This document shows, in pieces, positions 9,174 to 45,700 of a DNA stretch of 64,000 nt. Both the position numbers and the translations under genes were made by a program. Every line of letters begins with the position of its first letter. Position 1 is the stretch's first letter. The stretch is from Octopus vulgaris (taxonomy: Eukaryota): contig OX597819.1 of NCBI GenBank assembly GCA_951406725.2, positions 107,942,001-108,006,000 on the forward strand, read 5' to 3'. Below the pieces are notes generated by a model, which did no database searches, had not been told where the DNA came from, and saw only the letters and a list, made by a program, of their open reading frames with translations.

Positions 9174-9174
9174 T

Positions 9175-13707: not shown

Positions 13708-15903
13708 TCTCTCCTTCCCCGTCTCTGATCTAACACACCAAATCGTCCCACCCCCAAACACCTAATCTCTATATAAACCAGCGTTTGCTCTGTCCTCCTA
13801 ATTTAAGCATTGATCTAACCCTAATATCTTCTCCGTATATTATCTATCTCTTTTTCTTCTTCCTCTCTCTATTTTTTATCTCTCTGTATTGTAAACATGA
13901 TGTTGCTAGCTTCCTATTTGTCCTTTTCGATACATTTTCTATATTCCTAATTTATTTCAGGGTATTTCCTTTTCTCCCAAAATTCCCTAGAATGATTTCG
14001 GCTTTCAGCTTTTCTCGATTTTTTTTTCCGGCATTTCCTGTTTCATTAAGTTTTTATTTCGAACCACGTCCTGCCATAGAAAATACTCCCTCATGGCGTC
14101 TCCTCTCTCTTTCTCTATCTCTCTCTCCCTCCCCATCTCCGATCTAACACACCAAATCGTCCCCCCCCCCCAAACCACTAATCTCTATATAAACCAGCGT
14201 TTGCTCTGTCCTTGCCTCTACTCAATTCTCACTGCTTTGCTTCGGATGATAAACTCGGATCTCAGAAATGTGCAGCTAAGATATATATTTTGACGCTAAC
14301 CTTAGTTCATTACCGTTTAAACGTTGATCTAACACCCCAAATCTTCCCCACCCGAAACCCCCAAATCTCTATATAAACCAGCGTTTGCTCTGTCCTTGCC
14401 TCTACTCGATTCTCACTGCTTTGCTTCGGATGATAAACTCGGATCTCAGAAATGTGCAGCTAAGATATATATTTTGACGCTAACCTTAGTTCATTACCGT
14501 TTAAGCGTTGATCTAACCCTAATATCTTCTCCGTATATTATCTATCTCTCTATCTTCTTCCTCTCTCTATTTTTTATCTCTCTCTATTGTAAACATGATG
14601 CCGCTAGCTTCCTATTTGTCCTTTTCGATACATTTTCTATATTCCCTATTTATTTCAGGATATTTTCTTTCTCCGAAACTTCCCTGAAATGATTTCGGCA
14701 TTTCTTGTTTCTTTAAGAAAGGACAAATAGGAAGCTTATGGCATCATGTTTACAATAGAGAGAGATAAAAAACAGAGAGAGGAAGAAGATAGAGAGATAG
14801 ATAATATACGGAGAAGATATTAGGGTTAGATCAACGCTTAAACGGTAATGAACTAAGGTTATCGTCAAAATATATATCTTAGCTGCACATTTCTGAGATC
14901 CGAGTTTATCATCCGAAGCAAAGAAGTGAGAATCGAGTAGAGGCAAGGACAGAGCAAATGCTGGGTTATATGGAGATTAGTGGTTTGGGTGGGGGGGAAG
15001 ATTTGGTGTGTTAGATCGGAGATGGGGAGGGAGAGAGAGAAAGAGAGAGGACACGCCATGAGGGCGAATTCTCCATCGCAGGACGTGGTTCGAAATAAAA
15101 ACTTAAAGAAACAGGAAATGCCGCAAAAAAAAAAAAAAACGCGAGACAAGGTTAAAGCCGAATTCAATTTAGGGAATTTTGGGAGAAAGGAAATACCCTG
15201 AAATAAATGAGGAATATAGAAAATGTATATTATCTATTTCTCTATCTTCTTCCTGTCTCTATTTTTTATCTCTCTCTATTGTAAACATGATGCCGCTAGC
15301 TTCCTATTTGTCCTTTTCGATACATTTTCTATATTCCTCATTTATTTCAGGGTATTTCCTTTTCTCCCTAAATTCCCCAAAATGATTTCGGCTTTCAGCT
15401 TTTCTCGATTTTTTTTTTCGGCATTTCCCGTTTCATTAAGTTTTTATTTCGAACCACGTCCTGCCATAGGGAATTCTACTTCGTGGCGTTGCCTCTCTCT
15501 CTCCCTCCCCGTCTTCGATCTAACACACCAAGTCGTCCCACCACCAAACACCTAATCTCTATATAGACCAGCGTTTGCTCTGTCCTAATTTAAGCGTTGA
15601 TCTAACCCTAATATCTTCTCCCTATATTATCTATCTCTCTATCTTCTTCCTCTCTCTATTTTTTATCTCTATTGTAAACATGATGCCGCTAGCTTCCTAT
15701 TTGTCCTTTTCGATGCATTTTCTATATTCCTCATTTAGTTCAGGGTATTTCCTTTCTCCCAAAATTCTGTTAAATGATTTCGGCTTTCAGCTTGTATCGC
15801 GTTGTTTTTCGGCATTTCCTGTTTCTTTAAGTTTTTATTTCGAAGCACGTCCTGCCACAGAGAATACTCCTTCGTGGCGTCACCTCTCTCTCTCTCTCTC
15901 TCA

Positions 15904-15940
<37 letters not shown>

Positions 15941-18720
15941 TCCTTCCCCATCTCTGATCTAACACACCAAATCGTCCCACCCCCAAACACCTAATCTCTA
16001 TATAAACCAGCATTTGCTCTGTCCTCCTAATTTAAGCGTTGATCTAACCCTAATATCTTCTCCGTATATTATCTATCTCTCTATCTTCTTCCTCTCTCTA
16101 TTTTTTATCTCTTTGTATTGTAAACATGATGCTGCTAGCTTCCTATTTGTCCTTTTCGATACATTTTCTATATTCCTAATTTATTTCAGGGTATTTCCTT
16201 TTCTCCCAAAATTCCCTAGAATGATTTCGGCTTTCAGCTTTTCTCGATTTTTTTTTCCGGTATTTCCTGTTTCATTAAGTTTTTATTTCGAACCACGTCC
16301 TGCCATAGAGAATTCTCCCTCATGGCGTCGCCTCTCTCTTTCTCTCTCTCTCCCTCCCCATCTCCGATCTAACACACCAAATCGTCCCCCCCCCCCCAAA
16401 CCCCTAATCTCTATATAAACCAGCATTTGCTCTGTCCTCCTAATCTCTATATAAACCAGCATTTGCTCTGTCCTTGCCTCTACTCGATTCTCACTGCTTT
16501 GCTTCGGATGATGAACTTGGATCTCAGAAATGTGCAGCTTAGATATATATTTTGACGCTAACCTTAGTTCATTACCGTTTAAGCGTTGATCTAACCCTAA
16601 TATCTTCTCCGTATATTATCTATCTCTCTATCTTCTTCCTCTCTCTATTTTTTATCTCTCTGTATTGTAAACATGATGCTGCTAGCTTCCTATTTGTCCT
16701 TTTCGATACATTTTCTATATTCCTAATTTATTTCAGGGTATTTCCTTTTTTCGCAAAATTCCCTAGAATGATTTCGGTTTTCAGCTTTTCTCGATTTTTT
16801 TTTTCGGCATTTCCTGTTTCATTAAGTTTTTATTTCGAACCATGTCCTGCCATAGAGAATTCTACTTTATGGCGTGTCCTCTCTCTTTCTCTCTCTCCCT
16901 CCCCATCTCCGATCTAACACACCAGATCGTCCCCCCCCCCAAACCACTAATCTCTATATAAACCAGCGTTTGCTCTGTCCTTGCCTCTACTCGATTCTCA
17001 CTGCTTTGCTTCGGATGATAAACTCGGATCTCAGAAATGTGCAGCTAAGATATATATTTTGACGCTAACCTTAGTTCATTACCGTTTAAACGTTGATCTA
17101 ACACCCCAAATCTTCCCCACCCGAAACCCCCAAATCTCTATATAAACCAGCGTTTGCTCTGTCCTTGCCTCTACTCGATTCTCACTGCTTTGCTTCGGAT
17201 GAGAAACTCAGATCTCTCTATCTTCTTCCTCTCTCTATTTTTTATCTCTCTCTATTGGACATTTCTGAGATCCAAGTTCGGATGATAAACTCGGATCTCA
17301 GAAATTTGCAGCTAAGATATACATTTTGACGCTAACCTTAGTTCATTACCGTTTAAGCGTTGATCTAACCCTAATATCTTCTCCGTATATTATCTATCTC
17401 TCTATCTTCTTCTTCTCTCTATTTTTTATCTCTCTCTATTGTAAACATGATGCCGCTAGCTTCCTATTTGTCCTTTTCGATACATTTTCTATATTCTTCA
17501 TTTATTTCAGGGTATTTTCTTTCTCCCAAAATTCCCTGAAATGATTTCGGCATTTCTTGTTTCTTTAAGTTTTTATTTCGAACAACGTCCTGCCATAGAG
17601 AATTCTCCCTCGTGGTGTCTCCTCTCTCTTTCTCTCTCTCTCTCTCCTCCCCTCTCCGATCTAACACACCAAATCTTCCCCACCCGAAACCCCCAAATTT
17701 CCATATAAACCAGCGTTTGCTCTGTCCTTGCCTCTACTCGATTCTCACTGCTTTGCTTTGGATGATAAACTCGGATCTCAGAAATGTGCCGCTAAGATAT
17801 ATATTTTGACGCTAGCCTTAGTTCATTACCGTTTAAACGTTGATCTAACACCCCAAATCTTCCCCACCCGAGACCCCCAAATCTCTATATAAACCAGTGT
17901 TTGCTCTGTCCTTGCCTCTACTCGATTCTCACTGCTTTGCTTCGGATGATAAACTCGGATCTCAGAAATTTGCAGCTAAGATATATATTTTGACGCTAAC
18001 CTTAGTTCATTACCATTTAAGCGTTGATCTAACACTAATATCTTCTCCGTATATTATCTATCTCTCTACCTTCTTCCTGTCTCTATTTTTTATCTCTCTC
18101 TATTGTAAACATGATGCCGCTAGCTTCCTATCTGTCATTTTCGATACATTTTCTATATTCCTTTTATTTCAGGGTATTTGCTTTCTCCCAAACTTCCCTG
18201 AAATGATTTCGGCATTTCTTGTTTCTTTAAGTTTTTATTTCGAACCACGTCCTGCCATAGAGAATTCTCCCTCGTGGCGTCTCCTCTCTCTTTCTCTCTC
18301 TCTCTCTCCCTCCCCATCTCCGATCTAACACCCCAAATCTTCCCCACCCGAAACCCCCAAATCTCTATATAAACCAGCGTTTGCTCCGTCCTTGCCTCTA
18401 CTCGATTCTCACTGCTTTGCTTCGGATGATAAACTCGGATCTCAGAAATTTGCAGCTAAGATATATATTTTGACGCTAACCTTAGTTCATTACCGTTTAA
18501 GCGTTGATCTAACCCTAATATCTTCTCCGTATATTATCTATCTCTCTATCTTCTTCCTCTCTCTATTTTTTATCTCTCTCTATTGTAAACATGATGCCGC
18601 TAGCTTACTATTTGTCCTTTTCGATACATTTTCTATATTCCTCATTTATTTCAGGGTATTTCCTTTTCTCCCCAAATTCCCTAAAATGATTTCGGCATTT
18701 GCTGTTTCGCGGTACCCCCG
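12010..18720 (+). repeat. Modular CT-rich tandem satellite (unit ~400 bp, ~510 bp with optional module), left block
   Basis: Recurrent TGTAAACATGATGCCGCTAGCTTCC, TTTCGAACCACGTCCTGCCATAG, (CT)n and ATCTCTATATAAACCAGCG, with optional GCTTCGGATGATAAACTCGGATCTCAG module. Inverted segments at 12462-12949 and ~14718-15228. Confidence 0.92.
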
Positions 18721-18879
18721 CCCTCCCACCCCTTCCACCAAAACCTGAAGTTAGTACGAAGTTAGTACCTCAGTCTGTTTCTCCCCTCCCGCAGACACTC
18801 CCACACCCCTATAGTAGGGCTATTCGATCATATAGCGCAAAAACTATAGTGTATGAAGGTTGTAGTCTAGTGTTTATTT

Positions 18880-21800
18880 ATGAAATTTGCCAATCGCAAG
18901 TCTTCTTTTCAGGTACATGACACTTCTGTCCCACATCCCAGGGTCCCACAGGCCCACTCCTCTCACACCCTCAGTGTTGGTACACTCAATGTTGGCACAT
19001 TGAAAGGTAGGTCTGGTGAGATTGTCGAGCTGCTTGAACGGAGACGTGTGGATGTGCTGCATCCAAGAAGTAAGGTGGAGAGGAGGTTCCGCTAGGCTCC
19101 TCACAGGCAAGGAACACAGGTACAAGATTTTCTGGGCAGGGAACACTGACGGGGTTGGGGGCGTGGGTATACTTCTTGCAGAGAAATGGGTAGATAAAGT
19201 AATCGAGATAGTCAGAGTAAGTGACAGTGTACTTAAGGTTAGATTAGTGCCTCACCATTGGTCAGCTACCACCATCTTGGCATATGCCCCTCAAACAGGG
19301 CTACCGGAAGGACAGAAAGACCAATTCTATGACACCCTATTACAAACTACCTCGTTGACAAATGACAGTGACCTTCTATTTGTGGCAGGTGACTTCAATG
19401 GACATGTTTGAATGCATGTCGGGGGCTACGGTTTTGGTTCTCGCAATGAGGAGGGAACCGGGCTGCTGGAGTTCGGCGATGCAAATGACCTAATGATTTG
19501 CAATACCAGCTTCAGGAAACCCACCTCTCACCTTGTCACTTACCGTTCTGGCAGACACACTACCCAGATCGACTACATCCTTGCCAGAAAGAGGGAAAAA
19601 GGGCTGCCCAGAAGAAGAATAGCTCGGAGGAGAAGAGTCTGGAAACTTAAAGATCCTGTAAATGGACGGAGATTTAGAGAAGTTCTACTCGAAGCTTTCG
19701 ATGAAATAGAAGGGGATATAACATCACATAATGTGGAAGCCAACTGGAGGTTTCTACGGGACAATCTGCTGAGAGCTACTGACCACATCTGTGGATGGAG
19801 CAAAGTCCCATCTCGTCCCAGGGTAACGTGGTGGTAGAATATTGTTGTAGACAGGGCTATTAAAGACAAGAGACAGGCTTGGAAGGACTGGAGGAAAGGC
19901 GGTTGTAGGGAATTGTATCAGACTGCGAAAAGAGAAGCTGGGAGACAGGTATATCTAGCTAGAGGGGAAGCAGATAAGAAAAAATTTGCCAATGTTCTGC
20001 GCCATGAGGACCAAAGACTTGAGTTGTTTCGTGTTGCAAGACAGTGTGTGAGAGAGAATCGTGATGTGGTAGGAGAGAAATGTGTTTGCATGGATGATGG
20101 TTCACTTGCGTTAAATGAGGATGCAAAGAGAGAGGTTTGAAGATGCCACTATGAAAGGTTGCTCAAAAAAGAGAATGAATGGGATAAAGAGAGTCTGCCG
20201 AATGTCGACCCAATAGAGGGACCAGCTATCCGAGTTGACAGTTCCATGGTAGTTAAGGCAATTGGAAGCATGAAGACAGGGAAAGCCCCAGGCCCGTCAG
20301 GAATTACTGCTGAGATGCTCAAAATATCTGGCAGTGTCGGCTATAGCCTAGTCACCCGTATAGTTAACCAGGTGATACACGAAGGAGTCATACCCAATGA
20401 CTGGTGTAGTAGCATAATAGTCAACTGCTACAAAGGTAAAGGTGACGCCCTAGATACAAGTAATTACAGAGGTATTAAGCTGTTGGATCAAGTAATGAAG
20501 GTTACAGAAAGGGTCATTGCCCAACTGATTAGAGAGAGAGTCAACCTAGACGAGATGCAGTTTGGTTTTGTGCCAGGGAAAAGCACCACTGATGCGATAT
20601 TTCTGGTGAGACAGCTGCAGGACCTTGCTCTAATTGCTGAGTGACTATCAGAACTGGAGGAGAAGTTTCAGGTGTGGAAGCAAGGATTAGAATCAAAGGG
20701 CCTTAGAGTCAATCTAGCTAAAACCAAAGTCCTAATAAGTAGGAAGGTAGACAAATCTCAAACACCTTCAGGTAGATGGCCCTGCTCGATCTGTAGAAAA
20801 GGCGTAGGTAGGAACTCTATAAGATGCACCAAGTGTAAGCTATGAACACATAAGAGGTGCAGCAATGTCAAAGGAAGGCTAACCAGGAAGATAGTTTTTG
20901 TATGTGGCAGATGCTCTGGTTCAATAAAGACTGAAGATGCGCAGAGACCATCTTCCGCCACATTCCAGGGAGAAAAACTTGAAATAGTTGATAGTTTCCG
21001 TTACCTAGGTGACCAAGTCAGTAGCGGGGGTGGGTGTGCCAAAAGTGTAACTGCTAGAGTAAGAATAGCCTGGGCAAAGTTCAGAGAGCTCTTACCTCTG
21101 CTGGTGACAAAGGGCCTTTCACTCAGAGTAAAAGGCAGACTGTATGACGCATGTGTGCGAACAGCCATGCTACATGGCAGTGAAACATGGGTCGTGACTG
21201 CTGAGGATATGCGTAAGCTCGCAAGAAATGAAGCCAGTATGCTCTGTTGGATGTGTAATGTCAGTGTTCATACCCGACAGAGTGTAAGTGCCTTGAGAGA
21301 AAAGTTGGAGCTAAGAAGCATCAGATGTGGTGTGCAAGAGATGCGTCTACGCTGGTATGGACACGTAGTAAGAATGGATGAAGATAGTTGTGTGAAAAAG
21401 TGCTACACCCTAGAGGTTGAGGGAACCTGTGGAAGAGGTAGACCCAGGAAAGCCTGGGACGAGGTGGTGAAGAACGACCTTCGCGCTTTAGGTCTTACCG
21501 AGGAAATGACCAGAGACCGAGACCTTTGGAAGTATGCTGTGTGCGAGAAGACCCAGCAGGACACATGAGGCCATAACCCATGGCCCCTCCCTGGGACGTA
21601 GTCAGTCCACCTGTGCATACCTTCCTTCTTGGGACACTTGTGAAGACCTGTTGAGGCAAGTGAAAATCAAAATCAAAATAAAAATCAAACCAAATCAAAA
21701 TCGATGACCATCAATGGAATTTGTATCTTTGTGGTACCAGTGCCGGTGGCACATAAGAAGATCATCCGAACGTGGCCGTAGCCAGTACCGCATCGTCTGA

Positions 21801-22038
21801 CCTCCGTGCTGTGGGCACGTAACAAACACCATCCGATCATGGCCGTTCGCCAGCCACGTCTGGCACCTGTGTCGGTGGCACATAAAATCACTCACTACAC
21901 TCTCGGAGTGGTTGGCGTTAGGAAGGGCATCCAGCTGTAGAAACACTGACTGGCCTGGTGCAGCCTTCGGGCTTCCCAGACCCCAGTTGAACCGTCCAAC
22001 CCATGCTAGCATGGAAAGTGGACGTTAAACGATGATGA
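18880..22038 (+). mobile_element. Near full-length but internally deleted RTE LINE
   Basis: APE N-terminus GTLNVGTL, CCIQEVRW, GDFNGHV and QIDYIL. RT start present, but RT motifs A-C deleted at ~20620 (RQLQ|DLALIAE). PHD-like insert. C-terminal RLRWYGHV and GRGRPRKAW. (GAT)n tail. Confidence 0.93.
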
Positions 22039-22281
22039 TATATGTATGTATGTACATATGTATGTGTGTATATATATATTTGAGTAATTGAATGAATTAT
22101 CTTATTAAGGATAATTCGAAAGATAACCGATACCTGGGTAGCAAATTCACATCAGAAAGAACATGGTTGAAGCTACGTCCCTAGGGCATAGACTACGTGT
22201 CTTCGTGCGGAAATTTCTATGTTTATTTTAAAAATTATCAGTATATGAAAGAATGGAGTTGAACAACTAGTTAACAAATAT

Positions 22282-22376
22282 CCTTTATTCTCGACATATG
22301 TTTCGAAGGCTGCATATTCCTAATTCCGAAGGAATAAGGAGTACATTATGCAGATTTCTCATCAGGAAAATCAAGG
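22282..22376 (-). ncRNA. Type I hammerhead ribozyme with extended stem II
   Basis: Minus strand ATTTTC-CTGATGA-GAA..CTGCATA...TATGCAG..TTC-GAAA-CATAT-GTC-GAGAAT. Stem I ATTTTC/GAGAAT; palindromic stem III ACATATGT. Confidence 0.8.
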
Positions 22377-22573
22377 AACTTATGTCGACATCAAAATGCA
22401 CAAAAAACTTTTAGCTGACCGCTCTCAAGGAGTGTTACTTTATAATGAGTGACGTCAGAGTGGCTGAATGTAGAAGAATCTAGAAGTTTCTAAAGGTTCA
22501 AGAGTTCAAACGAAGTAGGAGGAGGGAGGCATAAGAATAGTAAGGTGAGAGAGTGCAGGTCAAAAGAATGGTG

Positions 22574-22998
22574 GGTTTAAATGATTTCTTTTGTGAATGA
22601 GTGCCTGTGTGTGTGACTGTATATAACTGTCTTAATGTGTGTATGTGTGTGTCTGAATGCGTGATTGTGTTTGTGGATGGGTAGATGTCAGAAAACTGAC
22701 AGCTGTGAGTTGAAAGGTCTGTATCTGTGTGTTCGATTATGTTTACTGTAGGGAAAAGAAAGTAGATAGCGAAAGGGAGAAAGAATCGGGCGAGGTGAGA
22801 GGCTATCTACTTTCCTTTCCCTACAATAAACATAATCGAACACACAGATACAGACCTTTCAACTCACAGCTGTCAGTTTTCTGACATCTACCCATCCACA
22901 AACACAATCACGCATTCAGACACACACATACACACATTAAGACAGTTATATACAGTCACACACACAGGCACTCATTCACAAAAGAAATCATTTAAACC
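22574..22998. repeat. 197-bp inverted repeat with 31-nt loop
   Basis: 22574-22770 is the reverse complement of 22802-22998, with two mismatches seen. Confidence 0.93.
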
Positions 22999-23280
22999 AC
23001 TGACACAGGATTTATCCTTCGAAACGTAGAGTAGATGAAACCTTAGCGACTGAAGAAGGGGTTTTTTCGTTGTCTTAATTGTCCTGTACTCCATTTTCTG
23101 TTGTTTTTAAAAAAATCTCCTGTTCCTTTGGTTTGTGTCTATGTTTTCGTTTCTCTTTGTGTTCGACGTCCCTTTGGTGTCCTGTACTCATATATGCGTG
23201 TATATGTACATGTAGAGGTAGGTACGTACATATATGTTTATATATATGCATATGTTTTATTTCATTTATTAATATATATA

Positions 23281-23444
23281 TCATCATCATCATCATCATC
23301 ATCATCATTTAGCGTCCGTTTTCCATGGGTTGGACGGTTCAACTGGGGTCTGGGGAGCCCGAAGGCTGCACCAGGCCAGTCAGATCTGGCAGTGTTTCTA
23401 CAGCTGGATGCCCTTCCTAACGCCAACCACTCCGAGAGTGTAGT
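23281..23444 (-). repeat. RTE 3' terminal fragment with (GAT)n tail
   Basis: Matches 8503-8662 and is truncated at the (TA)n where the Penelope 3' end lies. Confidence 0.85.
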
Positions 23445-23554
23445 ATATATATATATATATATATAATATAATTCGAGACAAAACCACTATTTTAAAACCA
23501 AACAAGGAAAGACTTAATCAATACATAAAATTTTAATATAAATTAAATAAACCG

Positions 23555-23597
23555 CCACTACAAATGTTTCATGTCTGCTCCGACAATCTTCAGGTGG
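23555..23597 (-). ncRNA. Minimal type I hammerhead ribozyme (PLE, downstream pLTR)
   Basis: CCAC-CTGAAGA-T-TGTC(GGAGCA)GACA-T-GAAA-CATTT-GTA-GTGG. Conserved core with stems I, II and a minimal stem III. Confidence 0.8.
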
Positions 23598-24100
23598 ATT
23601 TTCGATCTAAAAATAGCAATATTTTAAAATATAATTTAAAATAATTTCAAATATTAAAACAATAAAATTATCAATGAAAGAATGTAAAAAAATAAAAATA
23701 TAATCTATATATAATCTATATATAATCTATATATAATCAATATATAATCTAAAATAATCTAAAATAAACCCTATAAACAATTGAATATAAAAACCTATTA
23801 TAAAAGTTCTCATATTTAAAAATGTACAAAAACCAAAAAACAACAAGCAAGAAACAAAAACCAAAACCTAAAAACAAAAAACAAAAAACAAAAAATAAAC
23901 TATATATACACATACATGCTCATACACTCAACACATTACTTATTCATACTTCCTCACACACACATACAACACTCAATTCATAAACAATATACATATACCC
24001 GCTCACACATACATATACATACACATACATACAGAACACGATATATACCAATATATAAACACCCACACCCATACAGATAAATAAATTACGCAAACAATCA

Positions 24101-24134
<34 letters not shown>

Positions 24135-27040
24135 TTTTCACACATACATAAACACTCAAAAGAAAACCGAACAATTCTTAGCACGTGGATATCAAACATT
24201 TAAAAAAAATTATGAATAGAAATGAAATCCATACATTCAAGTATAAATATAACTATACAAACCCTAACACAATACACACAAATACACACACATATATACA
24301 CACACCCACAAACATAACCATATACACACTCACACATACATATACATACGTACAAGTCCCGATACAAACAAACTTTAATAAAACGACCATGAAAAACGAA
24401 AACTCATATATATTAATATATATATAAAAGAGTGTGTACACGCAGACGGGTCCAATCACACGCACATTCAAAACTTACATATATACAAGTGCATAAATAA
24501 TCACACCCAATTACATAGCACTCATACACTCCCACATCTACACTTACACTTGTACACTCTCACACATACATACACACCCATACCCACATACAAAAAATTC
24601 TTAGTAAAATAATCATGATAAATAAAATCCATACATACAAGTATAAATATAAAGATACAACCCATTACACAATACACATAAATACACACACATATATACA
24701 CACACCCACAAACATAACCATATACACACTCACACATACAAATAATACGTACAAAACTCGATACAATCAAATACACACACGCACACAAATTCACACATAC
24801 ATAAACATACAAAAGAAAACAACATCTCTACACATAATACGATATATAAAATACTCCATAAGAAATCAGATTATCATAAGTAACAAGATTAACAAAGGAG
24901 AAATATACATACCTTCTAATCAGTATCAAATTTTGAAGTGAATAACTTTATCCGTTATTACAATAAACAAAAATTGCGTTACCATGGAACCGAACATATA
25001 AAAATTATTAGCGCCGCGTAAAACAGCGTCTTTAAAATTATGAATGGAATATAAAATTCTTAGCGCGTAATAAACAAACGTAAATTAAAAAATTATGAAT
25101 GGATATACAAAACTTTCTACAAATTCTTTAAAAAAACCATAAAAAACGAAAACTCATATAGATATTAATATATATATTAAAAAAATGAATGTGTACACGC
25201 AGACGGGTGCAATCACACGGACATTCAAAACTTGCATGTATACAAGTACATAAATAATCACACTCAATTACATAGCACTCATACACTACCGCATCTATAC
25301 TTACACTTTTACACACGCACACATACATACACACCCATACCTACATACAAAATACTTATTAAACTAATCATGATAATGAAGTCTATACATACAAATATAA
25401 AGATAAAGATAAAACCCCATTCATACACAATACACACAAATACACACACATATATACACACACACAAACATAACCATATACACACTCACACATACATATA
25501 CATACGTACAAACTCAATATATACACTAATATTCATTCACACACTCAATAAAATATTAAGTAAATACAAAACAAAGAAATACCAATTAAATACTAGCTAT
25601 AATTAAAGTCTAAACTATATAACTAAAAATATATATATGGTACTCTAAACTAAAAACAAATTAATCTACAGTAACCTTTAATAGGGGGCTATTAATTTTA
25701 TTAATTTATATATCATTTATGAATGAAATCCATACATACAAGTATAAATATAACTATACAACCCCTAACACAATACACACAAATACACACACATATATAC
25801 ACACCCCCACAAACATAACCTTATACACACTCACACATACATATACATACGTACAAATCTCGATACAAACAAACTTTAATAAAACGACCATGATAAACGA
25901 AAACTCATATATATATATTAAAATATATATAAAAGAGTGTGTACACGCAGACGGGTGCAATCACACGCACATTCAAAACTTACATGTATACAAGTGCATA
26001 AATAATCACACCCAATTACATAGCACTCATACACTCCCACATCTACACTAACACTTATACACACTCACACATACATACACACCCATACCTACATACAAAA
26101 ATTCTTATTAAAATAATCATGATAAATAAAATCCATACATACAAGTATAAATATAAAGATACAACCCCTTACACAATACACACAAATACACACACATATA
26201 TACACACACCCTCAAACATAACCATATACTCACTCACACATACAAATACATACGTACAAAACTCGATACAAGCAAAAACGCACACACACACACATTCACA
26301 CATACATAAACACACAAAAGAAAAACAACATTTCTACACATAATATGAATGGAATATACAAAACTTTCTACAATTCTTTAAAAAAACCATAAAAACTAAA
26401 ACTCAAATAGATATTAATATATATATATATAAAAATGAGTGTGTACACGCAGACGGGTGCAATCACACAGACATTCAAAACTTGCATGTATACAATTGCA
26501 TAAATAATTACACTCAATTACATAGCACTCATACACTACCGCATCTATACTTACACTTGTACACACGCACACCTACATACACACCCATACCTTTATGCAA
26601 AATACTTATTAAACTAATCATGATAATGAAGTCCATACATACAAATAAAAAGATAAAGATAAAACCCCTTTCATACACAATACACACAAATACACACACA
26701 TATATACACACACCCACAAACATAACCAAATACACACTCACACATACATATACTTACGTACAAACTCGATATATACACTATTATTCATTCCCACACTCAA
26801 TAAAATATTAATTAAATACAAAACAAAGAAATACCAATTAAATACTAACTATAATAAAAGCCTAAACTATAAAACTATAAATATATACTTGGTACTCTAA
26901 ACTAGAAACAAATTAAACTAAAATAACCTATAATAGGGGGCTATTAATTTTATTTATCAGGGAACCTATTATATAGGTAAAGTAATCTATGTCTACATTT
27001 TATTTTACGCTCTTCACCTATATTAAGTAAATTATCATAC

Positions 27041-27848: not shown

Positions 27849-27910
<62 letters not shown>

Positions 27911-34258: not shown

Positions 34259-34298
<40 letters not shown>

Positions 34299-34936
34299 TT
34301 GTTTGAGTAATTTATTTATCTGTATGGGTGTGGGTGTTTATATATTGGTATATATCGTGTTCTGTATGTATGTGTATGTATATGTATGTGTGAGCGGGTA
34401 TATGTATATTGTTTATGAATTGAGTGTTGTATGTGTGTGTGAGGAAGTATGAATAAGTAATGTGTTGAGTGTATGAGCATGTATGTGTATATATAGTTTA
34501 TTTTTTGTTTTTTGTTTTTTGTTTTTAGGTTTTGGTTTTTGTTTCTTGCTTGTTGTTTTTTGGTTTTTGTACATTTTTAAATATGAGAACTTTTATAATA
34601 GGTTTTTATATTCAATTGTTTATAGGGTTTATTTTAGATTATTTTAGATTATATATTGATTATATATAGATTATATATAGATTATATATAGATTATATTT
34701 TTATTTTTTTACATTCTTTCATTGATAATTTTATTGTTTTAATATTTGAAATTATTTTAAATTATATTTTAAAATATTGCTATTTTTAGATCGAAAATCC
34801 ACCTGAAGATTGTCGGAGCAGACATGAAACATTTGTAGTGGCGGTTTATTTAATTTATATTAAAATTTTATGTATTGATTAAGTCTTTCCTTGTTTGGTT
34901 TTAAAATAGTGGTTTTGTCTCGAATTATATTATATA
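31027..34936 (+). mobile_element. Inverted 5'-truncated Penelope copy (GIY-YIG coding part + whole 3'UTR)
   Basis: Reverse complement of 23460-27368. Encodes NKCDIKDVVYKC...EFKEIFIL. Confidence 0.93.
34799..34841 (+). ncRNA. Minimal type I hammerhead ribozyme (inverted copy)
   Basis: CCACCTGAAGATTGTCGGAGCAGACATGAAACATTTGTAGTGG read directly on +. Confidence 0.8.
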
Positions 34937-35399
34937 TATATATATATATATATACTACACTCTCGGAGTGGTTGGCGTTAGGAAGGGCATCCAGCTGTAG
35001 AAACACTGCCAGATCTGACTGGCCTGGTGCAGCCTTCGGGCTCCCCAGACCCCAGTTGAACCGTCCAACCCATGGAAAACGGACGCTAAATGATGATGAT
35101 GATGATGATGATGATGATATATATATTAATAAATGAAATAAAACATATGCATATATATAAACATATATGTACGTACCTACCTCTACATGTACATATACAC
35201 GCATATATGAGTACAGGACACCAAAGGGACGTCGAACACAAAGAGAAACGAAAACATAGACACAAACCAAAGGAACAGGAGATTTTTTTAAAAACAACAG
35301 AAAATGGAGTACAGGACAATTAAGACAACGAAAAAACCCCTTCTTCAGTCGCTAAGGTTTCATCTACTCTACGTTTCGAAGGATAAATCCTGTGTCAGT

Positions 35400-35824
35400 G
35401 GTTTAAATGATTTCTTTTGTGAATGAGTGCCTGTGTGTGTGACTGTATATAACTGTCTTAATGTGTGTATGTGTGTGTCTGAATGCGTGATTGTGTTTGT
35501 GGATGGGTAGATGTCAGAAAACTGACAGCTGTGAGTTGAAAGGTCTGTATCTGTGTGTTCGATTATGTTTATTGTAGGGAAAGGAAAGTAGATAGCCTCT
35601 CACCTCGCCCGATTCTTTCTCCCTTTCGCTATCTACTTTCTTTTCCCTACAGTAAACATAATCGAACACACAGATACAGACCTTTCAACTCACAGCTGTC
35701 AGTTTTCTGACATCTACCCATCCACAAACACAATCACGCATTCAGACACACACATACACACATTAAGACAGTTATATACAGTCACACACACAGGCACTCA
35801 TTCACAAAAGAAATCATTTAAACC
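35400..35824. repeat. Mirror copy of the 197-bp hairpin
   Basis: Reverse complement of 22574-22998. Confidence 0.9.
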
Positions 35825-36021
35825 CACCATTCTTTTGACCTGCACTCTCTCACCTTACTATTCTTATGCCTCCCTCCTCCTACTTCGTTTGAACTCTTGA
35901 ACCTTTAGAAACTTCTAGATTCTTCTACATTCAGCCACTCTGACGTCACTCATTATAAAGTAACACTCCTTGAGAGCGGTCAGCTAAAAGTTTTTTGTGC
36001 ATTTTGATGTCGACATAAGTT

Positions 36022-36116
36022 CCTTGATTTTCCTGATGAGAAATCTGCATAATGTACTCCTTATTCCTTCGGAATTAGGAATATGCAGCCTTCGAAACAT
36101 ATGTCGAGAATAAAGG
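36022..36116 (+). ncRNA. Type I hammerhead ribozyme with extended stem II (mirror copy)
   Basis: CTGATGA at 36033-36039, GAAA at 36094-36097, GTC at 36103-36105. Confidence 0.8.
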
Positions 36117-36315
36117 ATATTTGTTAACTAGTTGTTCAACTCCATTCTTTCATATACTGATAATTTTTAAAATAAACATAGAAATTTCCGCACGAAGACA
36201 CGTAGTCTATGCCCTAGGGACGTAGCTTCAACCATGTTCTTTCTGATGTGAATTTGCTACCCAGGTATCGGTTATCTTTCGAATTATCCTTAATAAGATA
36301 ATTCATTCAATTACT

Positions 36316-36388
<73 letters not shown>

Positions 36389-36407
36389 ATATGTACATAC
36401 ATACATA

Positions 36408-39400
36408 TATCATCATCGTTTAACGTCCACTTTCCATGCTAGCATGGGTTGGACGGTTCAACTGGGGTCTGGGAAGCCCGAAGGCTGCACCAGGCCAGTC
36501 AGTGTTTCTACAGCTGGATGCCCTTCCTAACGCCAACCACTCCGAGAGTGTAGTGAGTGATTTTATGTGCCACCGACACAGGTGCCAGACGTGGCTGGCG
36601 AACGGCCATGATCGGATGGTGTTTGTTACGTGCCCACAGCACGGAGGTCAGACGATGCGGTACTGGCTACGGCCACGTTCGGATGATCTTCTTATGTGCC
36701 ACCGGCACTAATTTTACAAAGATACAAATTCCATTGATGGTCATCGATTTTGATTTGGTTTGATTTTTATTTTGATTTTCACTTGCCTCAACAGGTCTTC
36801 ACAAGTGTCCCAAGAAGGAAGGTATGCACAGGTGGACTGACTACGTCCCAGGGAGGGGCCATGGGTTATGGCCTCATGTGTCCTGCTGGGTCTTCTCGCA
36901 CACAGCATACTTCCAAAGGTCTCGGTCTCTGGTCATTTCCTCGGTAAGACCTAAAGCGCGAAGGTCGTTCTTCACCACCTCGTCCCAGGCTTTCCTGGGT
37001 CTACCTCTTCCACAGGTTCCCTCAACCTCTAGGGTGTAGCACTTTTTCACACAACTATCTTCATCCATTCTTACTACGTGTCCATACCAGCGTAGACGCA
37101 TCTCTTGCACACCACATCTGATGCTTCTTAGCTCCAACTTTTCTCTCAAGGCACTTACACTCTGTCGGGTATGAACACTGACATTACACATCCAACAGAG
37201 CATACTGGCTTCATTTCTTGCGAGCTTACGCATATCCTCAGCAGTCACGACCCATGTTTCACTGCCATGTAGCATGGCTGTTCGCACACATGCGTCATAC
37301 AGTCTGCCTTTTACTCTGAGTGAAAGGCCCTTTGTCACCAGCAGAGGTAAGAGCTCTCTGAACTTTGCCCAGGCTATTCTTACTCTAGCAGTTACACTTT
37401 TGGCACACCCACCCCCGCTACTGACTTGGTCACCTAGGTAACGGAAACTATCAACTATTTCAAGTTTTTCTCCCTGGAATGTGGCGGAAGATGGTCTCTG
37501 CGCATCTTCAGTCTTTATTGAACCAGAGCATCTGCCACATACAAAAACTATCTTCCTGGTTAGCCTTCCTTTGACATTGCTGCACCTCTTATGTGTTCAT
37601 AGCTTACACTTGGTGCATCTTATAGAGTTCCTACCTACGCCTTTTCTACAGATCGAGCAGGGCCATCTACCTGAAGGTGTTTGAGATTTGTCTACCTTCC
37701 TACTTATTAGGACTTTGGTTTTAGCTAGATTGACTCTAAGGCCCTTTGATTCTAATCCTTGCTTCCACACCTGAAACTTCTCCTCCAGTTCTGATAGTCA
37801 CTCAGCAATTAGAGCAAGGTCCTGCAGCTGTCTCACCAGAAATATCGCATCAGTGGTGCTTTTCCCTGGCACAAAACCAAACTGCATCTCGTCTAGGTTG
37901 ACTCTCTCTCTAATCAGTTGGGCAATGACCCTTTCTGTAACCTTCATTACTTGATCCAACAGCTTAATACCTCTGTAATTACTTGTATCTAGGGCGTCAC
38001 CTTTACCTTTGTAGCAGTTGACTATTATGCTACTACACCAGTCATTGGGTATGACTCCTTCGTGTATCACCTGGTTAACTATACGGGTGACTAGGCTATA
38101 GCCGACACTGCCAGATATTTTGAGCATCTCAGCAGTAATTCCTGACGGGCCTGGGGCTTTCCCTGTCTTCATGCTTCCAATTGCCTTAACTACCATGGAA
38201 CTGTCAACTCGGATAGCTGGTCCCTCTATTGGGTCGACATTCGGCAGACTCTCTTTATCCCATTCATTCTCTTTTTTGAGCAACCTTTCATAGTGGCATC
38301 TTCAAACCTCTCTCTTTGCATCCTCATTTAACGCAAGTGAACCATCATCCATGCAAACACATTTCTCTCCTACCACATCACGATTCTCTCTCACACACTG
38401 TCTTGCAACACGAAACAACTCAAGTCTTTGGTCCTCATGGCGCAGAACATTGGCAAATTTTTCTTATCTGCTTCCCCTCTAGCTAGATATACCTGTCTCC
38501 CAGCTTCTCTTTTCGCAGTCTGATACAATTCCCTACAACCGCCTTTCCTCCAGTCCTTCCAAGCCTGTCTCTTGTCTTTAATAGCCCTGTCTACAACAAT
38601 ATTCTACCACCACGTTACCCTGGGACGAGATGGGACTTTGCTCCATCCACAGATGTGGTCAGTAGCTCTCAGCAGATTGTCCCGTAGAAACCTCCAGTTG
38701 GCTTCCACATTATGTGATGTTATATCCCCTTCTATTTCATCGAAAGCTTCGAGTAGAACTTCTCTAAATCTCCGTCCATTTACAGGATCTTTAAGTTTCC
38801 AGACTCTTCTCCTCCGAGCTATTCTTCTTCTGGGCAGCCCTTTTTCCCTCTTTCTGGCAAGGATGTAGTCGATCTGGGTAGTGTGTCTGCCAGAACGGTA
38901 AGTGACAAGGTGAGAGGTGGGTTTCCTGAAGCTGGTATTGCAAATCATTAGGTCATTTGCATCGCCGAACTCCAGCAGCCCGGTTCCCTCCTCATTGCGA
39001 GAACCAAAACCGTAGCCCCCGACATGCATTCAAACATGTCCATTGAAGTCACCTGCCACAAATAGAAGGTCACTGTCATTTGTCAACGAGGTAGTTTGTA
39101 ATAGGGTGTCGTAGAATTGGTCTTTCTGTCCTTCCGGTAGCCCTGTTTGAGGGGCATATGCCAAGATGGTGGTAGCTGACCAATGGTGAGGCACTAATCT
39201 AACCTTAAGTACACTGTCACTTACTCTGACTATCTCGATTACTTTATCTACCCATTTCTCTGCAAGAAGTATACCCACGCCCCCAACCCCGTCAGTGTTC
39301 CCTGCCCAGAAAATCTTGTACCTGTGTTCCTTGCCTGTGAGGAGCCTAGCGGAACCTCCTCTCCACCTTACTTCTTGGATGCAGCACATCCACACGTCTC

Positions 39401-39561
39401 CGTTCAAGCAGCTCGACAATCTCACCAGACCTACCTTTCAATGTGCCAACATTGAGTGTACCAACACTGAGGGTGTGAGAGGAGTGGGCCTGTGGGACCC
39501 TGGGATGTGGGACAGAAGTGTCATGTACCTGAAAAGAAGACTTGCGATAGGCAAATTTCAT
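36408..39561 (-). mobile_element. RTE LINE, mirror copy of 18880-22038
   Basis: Essentially identical translations and the same deletions and stops. Confidence 0.93.
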
Positions 39562-39719
39562 AAATAAACACTAGACTACAACCTTCATACACTATAGTTT
39601 TTGCGCTATATGATCGAATAGCCCTACTATAGGGGTGTGGGAGTGTCTGCGGGAGGGGGAGAAACAGACTGAGGTACTAACTTCGTACTAACTTCAGGTT
39701 TTGGTGGAAGGGGTGGGAG

Positions 39720-42700
39720 GGCGGGGGTACCGCGAAACAGCAAATGCCGAAATCATTTTAGGGAATTTGGGGAGAAAAGGAAATACCCTGAAATAAATGA
39801 GGAATATAGAAAATGTATCGAAAAGGACAAATAGTAAGCTAGCGGCATCATGTTTACAATAGAGAGAGATAAAAAATAGAGAGAGGAAGAAGATAGAGAG
39901 ATAGATAATATACGGAGAAGATATTAGGGTTAGATCAACGCTTAAACGGTAATGAACTAAGGTTAGCGTCAAAATATATATCTTAGCTGCAAATTTCTGA
40001 GATCCGAGTTTATCATCCGAAGCAAAGCAGTGAGAATCGAGTAGAGGCAAGGACGGAGCAAACGCTGGTTTATATAGAGATTTGGGGGTTTCGGGTGGGG
40101 AAGATTTGGGGTGTTAGATCGGAGATGGGGAGGGAGAGAGAGAGAGAGAAAGAGAGAAAAGACGCCACGAGGGAGAATTCTCTATGGCAGGACGTGGTTC
40201 GAAATAAAAACTTAAAGAAACAAGAAATGCCGAAATCATTTCAGGGAATTTTGGGAGAAAGCAAATACCCTGAAATAAAAGGAATATAGAAAATGTATCG
40301 AAAATGACAGATAGGAAGCTAGCGGCATCATGTTTACAATAGAGGGAGATAAAAAATAGAGAGAGAGGAAGAAGGTAGAGAGATAGATAATATACGGAGA
40401 AGATATTAGTGTTAGATCAACGCTTAAATGGTAATGAACTAAGGTTAGCGTCAAAATATATATCTTAGCTGCAAATTTCTGAGATCCGAGTTTATCATCC
40501 GAAGCAAAGCAGTGAGAATCGAGTAGAGGCAAGGACAGAGCAAACACTGGTTTATATAGAGATTTGGGGGTCTCGGGTGGGGAAGATTTGGGGTGTTAGA
40601 TCAACGTTTAAACGGTAATGAACTAAGGCTAGCGTCAAAATATATATCTTAGCGGCACATTTCTGAGATCCGAGTTTATCATCCAAAGCAAAGCAGTGAG
40701 AATCGAGTAGAGGCAAGGACAGAGCAAACGCTGGTTTATATGGAAATTTGGGGGTTTCGGGTGGGGAAGATTTGGTGTGTTAGATCGGAGAGGGAGGGAG
40801 AGAGAGAGAGAGAAAGAGAGAGGAGACACCACGAGGGAGAATTCTCTATGGCAGGACGTTGTTCGAAATAAAAACTTAAAGAAACAAGAAATGCCGAAAT
40901 CATTTCAGGGAATTTTGGGAGAAAGAAAATACCCTGAAATAAATGAAGAATATAGAAAATGTATCGAAAAGGACAAATAGGAAGCTAGCGGCATCATGTT
41001 TACAATAGAGAGAGATAAAAAATAGAGAGAAGAAGAAGATAGAGAGATAGATAATATACGGAGAAGATATTAGGGTTAGATCAACGCTTAAACGGTAATG
41101 AACTAAGGTTAGCGTCAAAATGTATATCTTAGTTGCAAATTTCTGAGATCCGAGTTTATCATCCGAACTTGGATCTCAGAAATGTCCAATAGAGAGAGAT
41201 AAAAAATAGAGAGAGGAAGAAGATAGAGAGATCTGAGTTTCTCATCCGAAGCAAAGCAGTGAGAATCGAGTAGAGGCAAGGACAGAGCAAACGCTGGTTT
41301 ATATAGAGATTTGGGGGTTTCGGGTGGGGAAGATTTGGGGTGTTAGATCAACGTTTAAACGGTAATGAACTAAGGTTAGCGTCAAAATATATATCTTAGC
41401 TGCACATTTCTGAGATCCGAGTTTATCATCCGAAGCAAAGCAGTGAGAATCGAGTAGAGGCAAGGACAGAGCAAACGCTGGTTTATATAGAGATTAGTGG
41501 TTTGGGGGGGGGACGATCTGGTGTGTTAGATCGGAGATGGGGAGGGAGAGAGAGAAAGAGAGAGGACACGCCATAAAGTAGAATTCTCTATGGCAGGACG
41601 TGGTTCGAAATAAAAACTTAATGAAACAGGAAATGCCGGAAAAAAAAATCGAGAAAAGCTGAAAGCCGAAATCATTCTAGGGAATTTGGGAGAAAAGGAA
41701 ATACCCTGAAATAAATTAGGAATATAGAAAATGTATCGAAAAGGACAAATAGGAAGCTAGCAGCATCATGTTTACAATACAAAGAGATAAAAAATAGAGA
41801 GAGGAAGAAGATAGAGAGATAGATAATATACGGAGAAGATATTAGGGTTAGATCAACGCTTAAATTAGGAGGACAGAGCAAACGCTGGTTTATATAGAGA
41901 TTAGGTGTTTGGGGGTGGGACGATTTGGTGTGTTAGATCAGAGATGGGGAAGGAGAGAGAGGGAGAGAGAGTGAGAGAGAGAGAGAGAGAGGCGACGCCA
42001 CAAAGGAGTATTCTCTGTGGCAGGACGTGCTTCGAAATAAAAACTTAAAGAAACAGGAAATGCCGAAAAACAACGCGATACAAGCTGAAAGCCGAAATCA
42101 TTTAACAGAATTTTGGGAGAAAGGAAATACCCTGAAATAAATGAGGAATATAGAAAATGCATCGAAAAGGACAAATAGGAAGCTAGCGGCATCATGTTTA
42201 CAATAGAGAGAGATAAAAAATAGAGAGAGGAAGAAGATAGAGAGATAGATAATATAGGGAGAAGATATTAGGGTTAGATCAACGCTTAAATTAGGACAGA
42301 GCAAACGCTGGTCTATATAGAGATTAGGTGTTTGGTGGTGGGACGACTTGGTGTGTTAGATCGAAGACGGGGAGGGAGAGAGAGAAGAGGCAACGCCACG
42401 AAGTAGAATTCCCTATGGCAGGACGTGGTTCGAAATAAAAACTTAATGAAACAGGAAATGCCGAAAAAAAAAATCGAGAAAAGCTGAAAGCCGAAATCAT
42501 TCTGGGGAATTTAGGGAGAAAAGGAAATACCCTGAAATAAATGAGGAATATAGAAAATGTATCGAAAAGGACAAATAGGAAGCTAGCGGCATCATGTTTA
42601 CAATAGAGAGAGATAAAAAATAGAGACAGGAAGAAGATAGAGAAATTGATAATATACATTTTCTATATTCCTCATTTATTTCAGGGTATTTCCTTTCTCC

Positions 42701-45700
42701 CAAAATTCCCTAAATTGAATTCGGCTTTAACCTTGTCTCGGGTTTTTTTTTTTTTTGCGGCATTTCCTGTTTCTTTAAGTTTTTATTTCGAACCACGTCC
42801 TGCGATGGAGAATTCGCCCTCATGGCGTGTCCTCTCTCTTTCTCTCTCTCCCTCCCCATCTCCGATCTAACACACCAAATCTTCCCCCCCACCCAAACCA
42901 CTAATCTCCATATAACCCAGCATTTGCTCTGTCCTTGCCTCTACTCGATTCTCACTTCTTTGCTTCGGATGATAAACTCGGATCTCAGAAATGTGCAGCT
43001 AAGATATATATTTTGACGCTAACCTTAGTTCATTACCGTTTAAGCGTTGATCTAACCCTAATATCTTCTCCGTATATTATCTATCTCTCTATCTTCTTCC
43101 TCTCTCTATTTTTTATCTCTCTCTATTGTAAACATGATGCCGCTAGCTTCCTATTTGTCCTTTCTTAAAGAAACAAGAAATGCCGAAATCATTTCAGGGA
43201 ATTTTCGGAGAAAGAAAATATCCTGAAATAAATAGGGAATATAGAAAATGTATCGAAAAGGACAAATAGGAAGCTAGCGGCATCATGTTTACAATAGAGA
43301 GAGATAAAAAATAGAGAGAGGAAGAAGATAGAGAAATAGATAATATACGGAGAAGATATTAGGGTTAGATCAACGCTTAAACGGTAATGAACTAAGGTTA
43401 GCGTCAAAATATATATCTTAGCTGCACATTTCTGAGATCCGAGTTTATCATCCGAAGCAAAGCAGTGAGAATCGAGTGGAGGCAAGGACAGAGCAAACGC
43501 TGGTTTATATAGAGATTTGGGGGTTTCGGGTGGGGAAGATTTGGGGTGTTAGATCAACGTTTAAACGGTAATGAACTAAGGTTAGCGTCAAAATATATAT
43601 CTTAGCTGCACATTTCTGAGATCCGAGTTTATCATCCGAAGCAAAGCAGTGAGAATTGAGTAGAGGCAAGGACAGAGCAAACGCTGGTTTATATAGAGAT
43701 TAGGTGTTTGGGGGTGGGACGATTTGGTGTGTTAGATCGGAGATGGGGAGGGAGAGAGAGAAGAGAGAGGACACGCCATGAGGGAGAATTTTCTATGGCA
43801 GGACGTGGTTCGAAATAAAAACTTAATGAAACAGGAAATGCCGAAAAAAAAAACGAGAAAAGCTGAAAGCCGAAATCATTCTAGGGAATTTTGGGAGAAA
43901 ATGAAATACCCTGAAATAAATGAGGAATATAGAAAATGTATCGAAAAGGACAAATAGGAAGCTAGCGGCATCATGTTTACAATACAGAGAGATAAAAAAT
44001 AGAGAGAGGAAGAAGATAGAGAGATAGATAATATACGGAGAAGATATTAGTGTTAGATCAACGTTTAAACGGTAATGAACTAAGGTTAGCGTCAAAATAT
44101 ATATCTTAGCTGCACATTTCTGAGATCCGAGTTTATCATCCGAAGCAAAGCAGTGAGAATTGAGTAGAGGCAAGGACAGAGCAAACGCTGGTTTATATAG
44201 AGATTAGTGGTTTGGGGGGGGGACGATTTGGTGTGTTAGATCGGAGATGGGGAGGGAGAGAGAGAAAGTGAGAGGACACGCCATGAGGGCGAATTCTCTT
44301 TGGCAGGACGTGGTTTGAAATAATAACTTAAAGAAACAGGAAATGCCGAAAAAAAAAAAACGCGAGACAAGGTGAAAGCCGAATTCAATTTAGGGAATTT
44401 TGGGAGAAAGGAAATACCCTGAAATAAATGAGGAATATAGAAAATGTATCGAAAAGGACAAATAGGAAGCTAGTAGCATCATGTTTACGATACAGAGAGA
44501 TAAAAAATAGAGAGAGGAAGAAGATAGAGAGATAGATAATATACGGAGAAGATATTAGTGTTAGATCAACGCTTAAATTAGGACAGAGCAAACGCTGGTT
44601 TATATATAGATTAGGTGTTTGGGGGTGGGATGATTTGGTGTGTTAGATCGGAGATGGGGAGGGAGAGAGAGAGAGAGAAAGTGAGAGAGAGAGAGAGAGA
44701 GGCGATGCCACGAAGGAGAATTCTCTATGGCAGGACGTGGTTCGAAATAAAAACTTAATGAAACAGGAAATGCCGAAAAAAAAAAACGAGAAAAGCTGAA
44801 AGCCGAAATCATTCTAGGGAATTTTGGGAGAAAATGAAATACCCTGAAATAAATGAGGAATATAGAAAATGTATCGAAAAGGACAAATAGGAAGCTAGCG
44901 GAATCATGTTTCCAATACAGAGAGATAAAAAATAGAGAGAGGAAGATGATAGAGAAATAGATAATATCGGGAGAAGATATTAGGGTTAGATCAACGCTTA
45001 AACGGTAATGAACTAAGGTTAGCGTCAAAATACATATATCTTAGCTGCACATTTCTGAGATCCGAGTTTATCATCCGAAGCAAAGCAGTGAGAATCGAGT
45101 AGAGGCATGGACAGAGCAAACGCTGGTTTAAATAGAGATTAGGGGTTTGGAGGGGGGACGATTTGGTGTGTTAGATCGGAGATGGGGAGGGAGAGAGAGA
45201 AAGAGAGAGGACACGCCATGAGGGCGAATTCTCTATGGCAGGACGTGGTTCGAAATAAAAACTTAATGAAACAGGAAATGCCGAAAAAAAAAATCGAGAA
45301 AAGCTGAAAGCCGAAATCATTCTAGGGAATTTTGGGAGAAAAGGAAATACCCTGAAATAAATGAGGAATATAGAAAATGTATCGAAAAGGACAAATAGGA
45401 AGCTAGTAGCATCATGTTTACAATACAGAGAGATAAAAAATAGAGAGAGGAAGAAGATAGAGAGATAGATAATATACGGAGAAGATATTAGGGTTAGATC
45501 AACGCTTAAATTAGGAGGACAGAGGAAACGCTGGTTTATATAGAGATTAGGTGTTTGGGGGTGGGACGATTTGGTGTGTTAGGTCGGAGATGGGGAGGGA
45601 GAGAGAGAGAGGCGACGCCACGAAGGAGAATTCTCTATGGCAGGACGTGGTTCGAAATAAAAACTTAAAGAAACAGGAAATGCTGAAAAACAACGCGATA

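Follow-up and report, generated by a model that had tools for sequence, protein, structure and literature searches.

A 30-kb Palindrome Centred on a Penelope-like Element in the Octopus vulgaris Assembly, and a Tentative Origin by Copying of One Flank over the Other

Introduction

The 64,000-nucleotide window examined here (G000:C6:107942001-108006000; Octopus vulgaris assembly of 2.80 Gb in 227 contigs) contains a palindrome of about 30 kb that is centred on a Penelope-like element (PLE) and that mirrors more than 9 kb of host DNA. All positions below refer to the window unless stated otherwise. The mirror duplication is confirmed for the assembled sequence, as distinct from the chromosome. 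As to its origin, we favour an ordinary head-to-head PLE insertion into a (TA)n tract, after which the left flank and 3' end were replaced by a copy of the right ones through host recombination or repair between nested inverted repeats. We give this explanation a probability of about 0.45. It draws on three observations: the relatives of this element do not mirror their flanks, they carry a tail at one end only, and the window copy has lost this asymmetry.

The Palindrome in the Assembled Sequence

Self-comparison by BLAST aligns 22038-27368 with 36360-31027 in inverted orientation (99.55% identity) and 16578-22079 with 41864-36369 (99.4%). Unique anchors extend the mirror outwards through satellite sequence to about 14026-14180 on the left and 43700-43846 on the right. 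The arms span ~14.1-27.4 kb and 31.0-43.7 kb at ~99.1-99.9% identity, a length and likeness far beyond chance. The window contains no N, and sequence runs on both sides of the palindrome within a 135.6-Mb contig. An earlier note on this DNA had described such a PLE-centred palindrome from the sequence alone, and its layout is borne out: the inverted repeat of the PLE forms the centre, 3.66 kb between the arms is not mirrored, and at 31027/28 a 2-bp TA overlap leads into the mirror of the endonuclease region at 27368.

The importance that the note attached to this junction did not survive. It had placed the breakpoint exactly at the 5' edge of the pseudo-long terminal repeat (pLTR) of the element. 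This argument is circular, since the edge is itself set by the junction, and so is the proposal that the position ties the duplication to retrotransposition. Other head-to-head pairs of the family contain internal junctions of the same kind as 31027/28, and the position at the pLTR edge is therefore not special.

The Element and Its Relatives

The 816-residue open reading frame (ORF) of the element had no significant match when compared directly with Pfam and PDB. Its closest homolog, P0001, resembles clusters that carry RVT_1, HTH_animal and GIY-YIG. The YRDD motif is invariant across 38 aligned sequences, and YIG and CCYLC lie near the C-terminal end of this frame. EN+ PLEs are characterized by a single ORF in which a reverse transcriptase (RT) is followed by a C-terminal GIY-YIG endonuclease (EN), the arrangement predicted for the window ORF as well. 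The cysteine linker at residue 697 fits only loosely the CX2-5CxxC-like motif of Neptune and Nematis (PMC8557442). The surrounding layout is also that of EN+ PLEs, for which a partial tandem copy (the pLTR) and an inverted truncated copy have been described (PMC8557442, PMC3846280); the window contains both, the inverted copy being truncated at its 5' end.

Several further features of the element may be mentioned. An Asn-rich in-frame insert separates RT from endonuclease (27767-27952), similar to inserts in Adineta Penelope ORFs (PMC3846280). The 3' untranslated region (UTR; 24200-26960) contains internal direct repeats of ~620 bp, and the repeat number varies among copies. A hammerhead-like core motif occurs three times, yet a scan with Rfam returned no hammerhead match, and the minimum-energy fold did not produce a three-stem form. 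Matches to Rfam microRNA families stayed below gathering scores.

The PLE family is young: its nearest copies are 98-99% identical (among the best 40 candidates) and several retain open frames of more than 800 residues. A sister subfamily shares ~96% identity over the ORF and has a distinct 3' UTR. Since many of its 3' ends are 100% identical and several frames exceed 800 residues, this subfamily is probably active.

The survey covered 31 head-to-head loci, a first set of 11 and a second of 20 from the sister subfamily, and extended up to 2.5 kb beyond each of their ends. The second set came from 37 groups, of which 14 had no pair in the DNA examined, two repeated members of the first set and one (L112) had no right flank. 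One locus consisting of two small pairs (L116) was counted once, and probe ends at 239-255 were scored as tail-less. Family loci were drawn from the top 40 of 466-1446 candidates per search, so that rarer cases would escape.

This survey gave two results. First, back-to-back copies are the normal insertion form of the family. Second, none of the 31 loci has an adjacent mirrored flank (95% upper bound 9%). One copy, at C13:0.098 Mb, was considered as a flank-mirrored locus and rejected, since its mirror is offset by ~700 bp and its PLE pair belongs to one arm of a different palindrome; it is counted among the 31 as not adjacent. The flank-inclusive mirror of the window is indeed unusual, as had been claimed. 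In this sample the family has no general association with such inversions, an outcome that the earlier note had itself listed as speaking against its reading.

Each of the 31 loci has one end with a tail of ~90 bp and one end without. Two start sites of reverse transcription, observed for a PLE in vitro, explain such a tail (PMC11167929). The window copy deviates from this pattern: neither of its outer ends has a tail, both stop at the same base, and a single TA unit is all that distinguishes them. From this it follows that one end, together with its flank, was likely overwritten by a copy of the other. Later overwriting is also the simplest reading of the missing tail, as opposed to the element standing outside the EN+ PLEs.

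Four observations from other loci are recorded for their own sake. In L085 (G000:C13:92001-102000, at 2860-9502) a small PLE pair has entered a (TA)n tract within an arm of another palindrome, whose arms measure ~2 kb at 96-98% identity and are separated by a short spacer. In L074 (3794-6291; G000:C2, near 151.67 Mb) a head-to-head pair lies between direct repeats longer than 20 bp, a readable target-site duplication of a kind rare in this family. A near-perfect hairpin of 746 bp (98.7%) begins ~25 bp past the truncated pLTR of a close copy in L037 (1696-2438; G000:C4, near 94.61 Mb). Finally, long tandem arrays of 32-bp and 194-bp units occur in L039-L042 (G000:C6, 135.26-135.30 Mb) near another close family copy, together with an inverted repeat of 2.8 kb (93-95%).

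The Mirrored Flank and Its Outer Ends

The mirror had been said to continue through the (TA)n site, an RTE tail fragment, a hairpin element, an RTE-type long interspersed nuclear element (LINE) and a satellite. This extent holds, with the correction that the "satellite" is the amplified 5' region of the adjacent RTE LINE. Elsewhere this 5' unit occurs once or slightly more than once before RTE copies, or as diverged single units, and no array of it was found at other places in the assembly (28 of 28 candidates scored). At the locus, the two arrays together cover ~14 kb, with higher-order repeats and internal fold-back junctions. They contain units in both orientations, and the locus therefore comprises two nested inverted repeats.

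The mirror ends within homologous satellite units, where there is no new non-homologous junction, and the right array contains 3.3 kb without a counterpart in the left one. The right array terminates in (TA)n near an RTE 5' boundary; of four RTE copies compared, one (L051) starts that close and three start elsewhere. The left outer junction is a scar of the templated-insertion type, left by repair along a putative pathway, and it shows that the inverted satellite beside the left flank is a biological structure. One of the templated inserts at 11979-12023 copies broken-repeat sequence found nowhere else in the window.

Apart from the two arms, no place carries the flank at 100% identity (best 40 candidates per search; satellite, 28 of 28), and for this reason no donor for a transduction was found. 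We take the right side to be the resident one and the left to have been copied from it.

Arm Divergence

The differences between the arms that the earlier note had named are all present. In the endonuclease region, a T/K change is found at 27285/31110 and a K/R change at 27216/31179. The (TA)n tract is 50 bp longer on the right arm, and the left arm has 547 additional bp at 16031-16577. A 6-bp block substitution on the right arm (21733-21738/36710-36715) lies beside an (AAAATC)n tract and is absent from the other RTE copies examined; it is possibly the result of a short template switch.

These differences are unevenly distributed. The satellite arms differ at 31 of 3961 positions, as compared to 3 events in 4675 in the RTE and hairpin sequence, a ~12-fold excess (p = 6e-8). 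The PLE arms contain 6 clear single-nucleotide variants (SNVs) in 3922 positions, and no SNV separates the arms over 21740-24089. The PLE-adjacent flank (1/4760) is more alike than the inner PLE arms (6/3280) at p = 0.02 with bins chosen post hoc. For ordinary head-to-head pairs the differences between arms range from 1/2878 to 6/392.

Polarization against other copies assigns 15 derived states to the left arm and 17 to the right, with 2 of 34 unresolved; most are private. This even split argues against two technical origins, one error-prone fold-back read and polishing by paralogous reads. A single noisy fold-back read was accordingly discarded as unlikely, as its errors would be concentrated in one arm, against 15 left and 17 right of 32 here. 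The earlier argument that the differences speak against a fold-back artefact holds to this extent; a mis-join of two haplotypes fits them as well, since alleles would differ likewise.

Reads from other runs provide a limited view of the locus. The raw runs X20, X21 and X22 placed 0, 9 and 0 reads, too few to gauge depth. A word-based look-up gave 19 entries, none of which contained half of the sampled words. At 18782 and 18892 the contigs from X1 agree with the right arm, and at 18887 they have a variant that matches neither arm; because of this variant, X1 comes from another individual. No left-arm state was seen in the ~80% of the run that was scanned, although absence is weak evidence in contigs. 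Their depth of 42-76 was rejected as a measure of copy number for want of a single-copy baseline.

Origin of the Palindrome

The layout, the junctions, the identical tail-less ends, the family pattern and the two-orientation satellite restricted to this locus provide the observed footing for insertion followed by host copying. A young PLE would have entered a (TA)n tract in the usual head-to-head layout, initially with one tailed end and two unlike flanks, as in all sampled relatives. Two inverted satellite blocks would already have been present, and the insertion between them would have given rise to a 3.9-kb inverted repeat. Through a break or exchange close to this repeat, the left 3' end and the original left flank may then have been replaced. 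Fold-back or inter-sister annealing, gap repair, and crossover in an inversion heterozygote are candidate routes that are indistinguishable here. In each case the 3.9-kb PLE arms would probably serve as inner homology and the inverted satellite as outer homology. A switch in the satellite near 14.1/43.8 kb would lose the original left flank and keep the chromosome monocentric. The older-looking divergence of the satellite could stem from an allelic template or from later allelic exchange.

The family pattern is the main support for this model: 0 of 31 loci are mirrored and 31 of 31 have the one-sided tail, against two tail-less ends at the same base in the window. The restriction of full-identity flank to the two arms, the end of the mirror in homologous satellite and the scar at the left outer end lend further support, as do the RTE-like boundary at the right outer end, the even split of derived variants and the post hoc likeness of the PLE-adjacent flank. 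The geometry is that of a palindrome seeded by an inverted repeat, with such a repeat at its centre, the spacer kept and the arms extending beyond it; that the repeat came first is suggested by the family pattern. When a break occurs close to inverted repeats in yeast, the repeats give rise to fold-backs or inverted dimers, even if kilobases separate them (PMC6103520; PMC10164571).

Several points weigh against this model. The evidence for the palindrome, its central junction included, comes from the assembled sequence. The original left flank was looked for as a lost segment and not found. Compared over their whole length, flank (3/4675) and PLE arms (6/3922) do not differ significantly (p = 0.32). 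A single copying event leaves the excess divergence of the satellite unexplained, which fits an older palindrome or two haplotypes equally. X1 carries right-arm states alone, so that the arm variants behave like alleles. Finally, the 31 loci are a sample from the best 40 of the candidates of each search.

The first alternative is an assembly artefact, which we regard as unlikely. An ordinary head-to-head PLE would lie between two inverted satellite blocks, and the RTE-hairpin flank would have been used twice, either from two haplotypes or by a switch in the 3.9-kb repeat, while the true left flank was dropped. Nested inverted repeats would readily lead an assembly graph into such a path, and the differences between the arms look allele-like, with microsatellite lengths, a satellite-unit indel and patchy SNV density. 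The X1 states, shared with the right arm only at a depth without a known baseline, fit a haplotype mis-join as well as they fit a resident right arm that exchanges with ordinary alleles. On the other hand, the artefact requires a join across the 3.9-kb repeat plus a satellite block of ~2 kb, a distance that long reads, if used, should span. Moreover, the window has no N, no other contig contains the satellite array (28 of 28 candidates scored), and the even distribution of private substitutions makes a single chimeric fold-back read unlikely.

A slightly less probable alternative, a refined form of the main idea of the earlier note, couples the fold-back to the insertion itself. Within the repeat, the nascent second strand would switch from the left to the right cDNA and continue into the host flank; or two sister chromatids, both nicked at this (TA)n, would be bridged as by L1. 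In vitro, an enzyme from a PLE was found to cut as well as extend the two strands (PMC11167929), and L1 bridges sister chromatids in tumours (PMC7058536). The coincidence of the palindrome centre with the PLE junction and the SNV-free PLE-adjacent flank are what this mechanism would leave behind. Against this stand the 31 relatives, none of which has a mirrored flank, and the ordinary nature of the junction. Even divergence along the arms, which the mechanism predicts, is not observed, and a second, outer event would still be required to avoid a dicentric or acentric product.

We consider it more doubtful again that the palindrome predates the PLE. In this scenario the PLE inserted close to the centre of a mirror that RTE and satellite already formed, and gene conversion between the arms later erased the tail and homogenized ~4-5 kb. 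The fall in divergence from the satellite (0.7-0.9%) to the centre (0-0.06%) and the satellite's own fold-back junctions are consistent with this history. Conversion tracts of several kilobases are known from Y palindromes (PMC3723533), and the copy at C13:0.098 Mb shows that the family can land inside an existing palindrome. However, X1 lacks a left-arm state (weak evidence, coming from contigs), the outer arrays are not mirror images, and the scenario requires an old centre that is now gone.

A very long 3' transduction, in which reverse transcription of a read-through PLE transcript with more than 9 kb of flank led to an insertion beside its source, is largely refuted and very improbable: PLEs can carry host sequence in trans (PMC3846280) and the right outer end lies in (TA)n, the target of the family, but no separate donor or third flank copy appears among the scored matches, the right outer end looks like the 5' boundary of an RTE, the right array has 3.3 kb that is unmatched on the left, and the right side shares alleles with another individual and hence looks resident.

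Features of the Window

Coordinates of the features discussed above are collected in Table 1. Two further features lie in the same window. An open frame of 528 residues at 53585-55171 (+), outside the palindrome, encodes tandem C2H2 zinc fingers, a family named from the sequence pattern. A fragment at 61199-61669 (+) matches the Pif1 helicase 2B domain (E = 3e-7) and is possibly derived from a Helitron.

Table 1. Features of the palindrome and its borders (window coordinates)
Position	Strand	Feature	Remark
11853..11978	+	Dispersed repeat of left flank, broken at 11978	Usual continuation absent from window
11979..12023	.	Left outer junction: 9 nt matching satellite unit, ~30-nt inverted copy of the broken repeat's end and continuation, 3-4 nt microhomology into satellite	9-nt match read by eye
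12020..18711	+	Left array: RTE 5'-region units of ~500 bp, amplified and in part inverted	
12020-12463		Orphan unit of left array	~3-4% from any other unit
12463-14026		Left-array block	Repeats the block that begins near 14743
14180..27368	+	Left palindrome arm	Probably the copied side for flank and PLE 3' end
16031..16577	+	547-bp satellite	Left arm only
18712..22038	+	Body of an RTE-type LINE that lacks internal sequence found in other copies	2 SNVs, one 6-bp block and 3 small indels vs right arm
22090..22998	.	Dispersed hairpin element: ~714-bp body and ~197-bp inverted piece	0 arm differences over 22090-23444
23280..23444	-	RTE 3'-tail fragment, then (TA)n target of PLE	
23457..29623	-	Complete PLE unit of ~6.17 kb, with tail-less 3' end (~23457), long repetitive 3' UTR, ORF and tail segment (29535-29623)	
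23567..23593 (-); 29734-29760 (-); 34803-34829 (+)		Hammerhead-like core motif (CTGANGA...GAAA)	Motif match alone
27041..29491	-	816-aa ORF: YRDD (RT motif) at 359, N-rich insert, CxCx4xC linker at 697, YIG at 739, CCYLC at 802	C-terminal GIY-YIG-type endonuclease
27369..31026	.	Non-mirrored spacer, 3,658 bp	Self-comparison
29624..31028	-	Upstream partial tandem copy (pLTR)	9 SNVs/1401 bp vs left 3' end
31027..31028	.	Head-to-head junction, 2-bp TA microhomology	pLTR vs reverse complement of endonuclease region at 27368
31027..34939	+	Inverted 5'-truncated PLE copy, endonuclease region to tail-less 3' end	End base same as left copy
34940..43700	-	Right arm flank: (TA)n, RTE tail, hairpin element, longer (TA)n, RTE body (36410-39730), inner satellite	Probably the resident side
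39731..47160	-	Right satellite array, ending in (TA)n at 47161-47205	Not collinear with left array past ~43850; boundary like RTE copy in L051

Implications

If real, this locus would be a clear natural germline case in which an inverted repeat made by a retroelement became a palindromic duplication of host DNA. The duplicated content at this locus consists of repeats only. Each ingredient and the class of mechanism are already known; what is new is that overwriting can be recognized by a tail that is missing symmetrically where one side should have it. This built-in marker separates overwritten ends from ordinary insertions and allows a genome-wide count, from which it could be learned whether local inverted gene duplication in this animal is fed by PLE activity. 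A literature search, which covered few subscription papers and no supplements, returned no description of a PLE-centred palindrome that includes host flank. More broadly, since each head-to-head insertion plants a multi-kilobase inverted repeat, an active family might act as a standing generator of germline palindromic host duplications, and in some cases the insertion intermediate itself might fold back and copy flank. We hold this wider proposal to be rather improbable.

Comparison with Known Systems

Canonical EN+ PLE insertions have a pLTR, an adjacent inverted 5'-truncated copy, a one-sided tail and a microsatellite target (PMC8557442; PMC3846280; PMC11167929). The window element resembles them in its full ORF, upstream pLTR, inverted truncated copy, (TA)n target and N-rich insert between RT and endonuclease. 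In contrast to these examples, it has no tail at either outer end, shares the same end base on both sides and has more than 9 kb of host flank mirrored around it.

Fold-back inversions and breakage-fusion-bridge (BFB) cycles initiated by L1 in tumours also place a retroelement as the bridge of a head-to-head host duplication (PMC7058536). The L1 events are somatic, of megabase scale and accompanied by copy-number steps, with a single L1 as bridge, whereas the window shows ~9 kb around a double-armed PLE and no sign of repeated BFB. The palindromes of the Y chromosome offer another parallel, with arms more than 99% alike, patchy differences and identical tracts of several kilobases (PMC3723533). 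Unlike these, the arms in the window are gene-free and young, and conversion between them is a candidate process.

Fold-backs and inverted dimers seeded by inverted repeats in yeast would share with the octopus locus an existing inverted repeat with a kilobase spacer that becomes the centre of a longer palindrome, and the removal of a non-homologous end (PMC6103520; PMC10164571). In contrast to the yeast systems, the octopus repeat would have been made by a retroelement in one insertion step, with an outer end resolved in local satellite. The resulting palindrome is short and, being present in a germline assembly, apparently stable.

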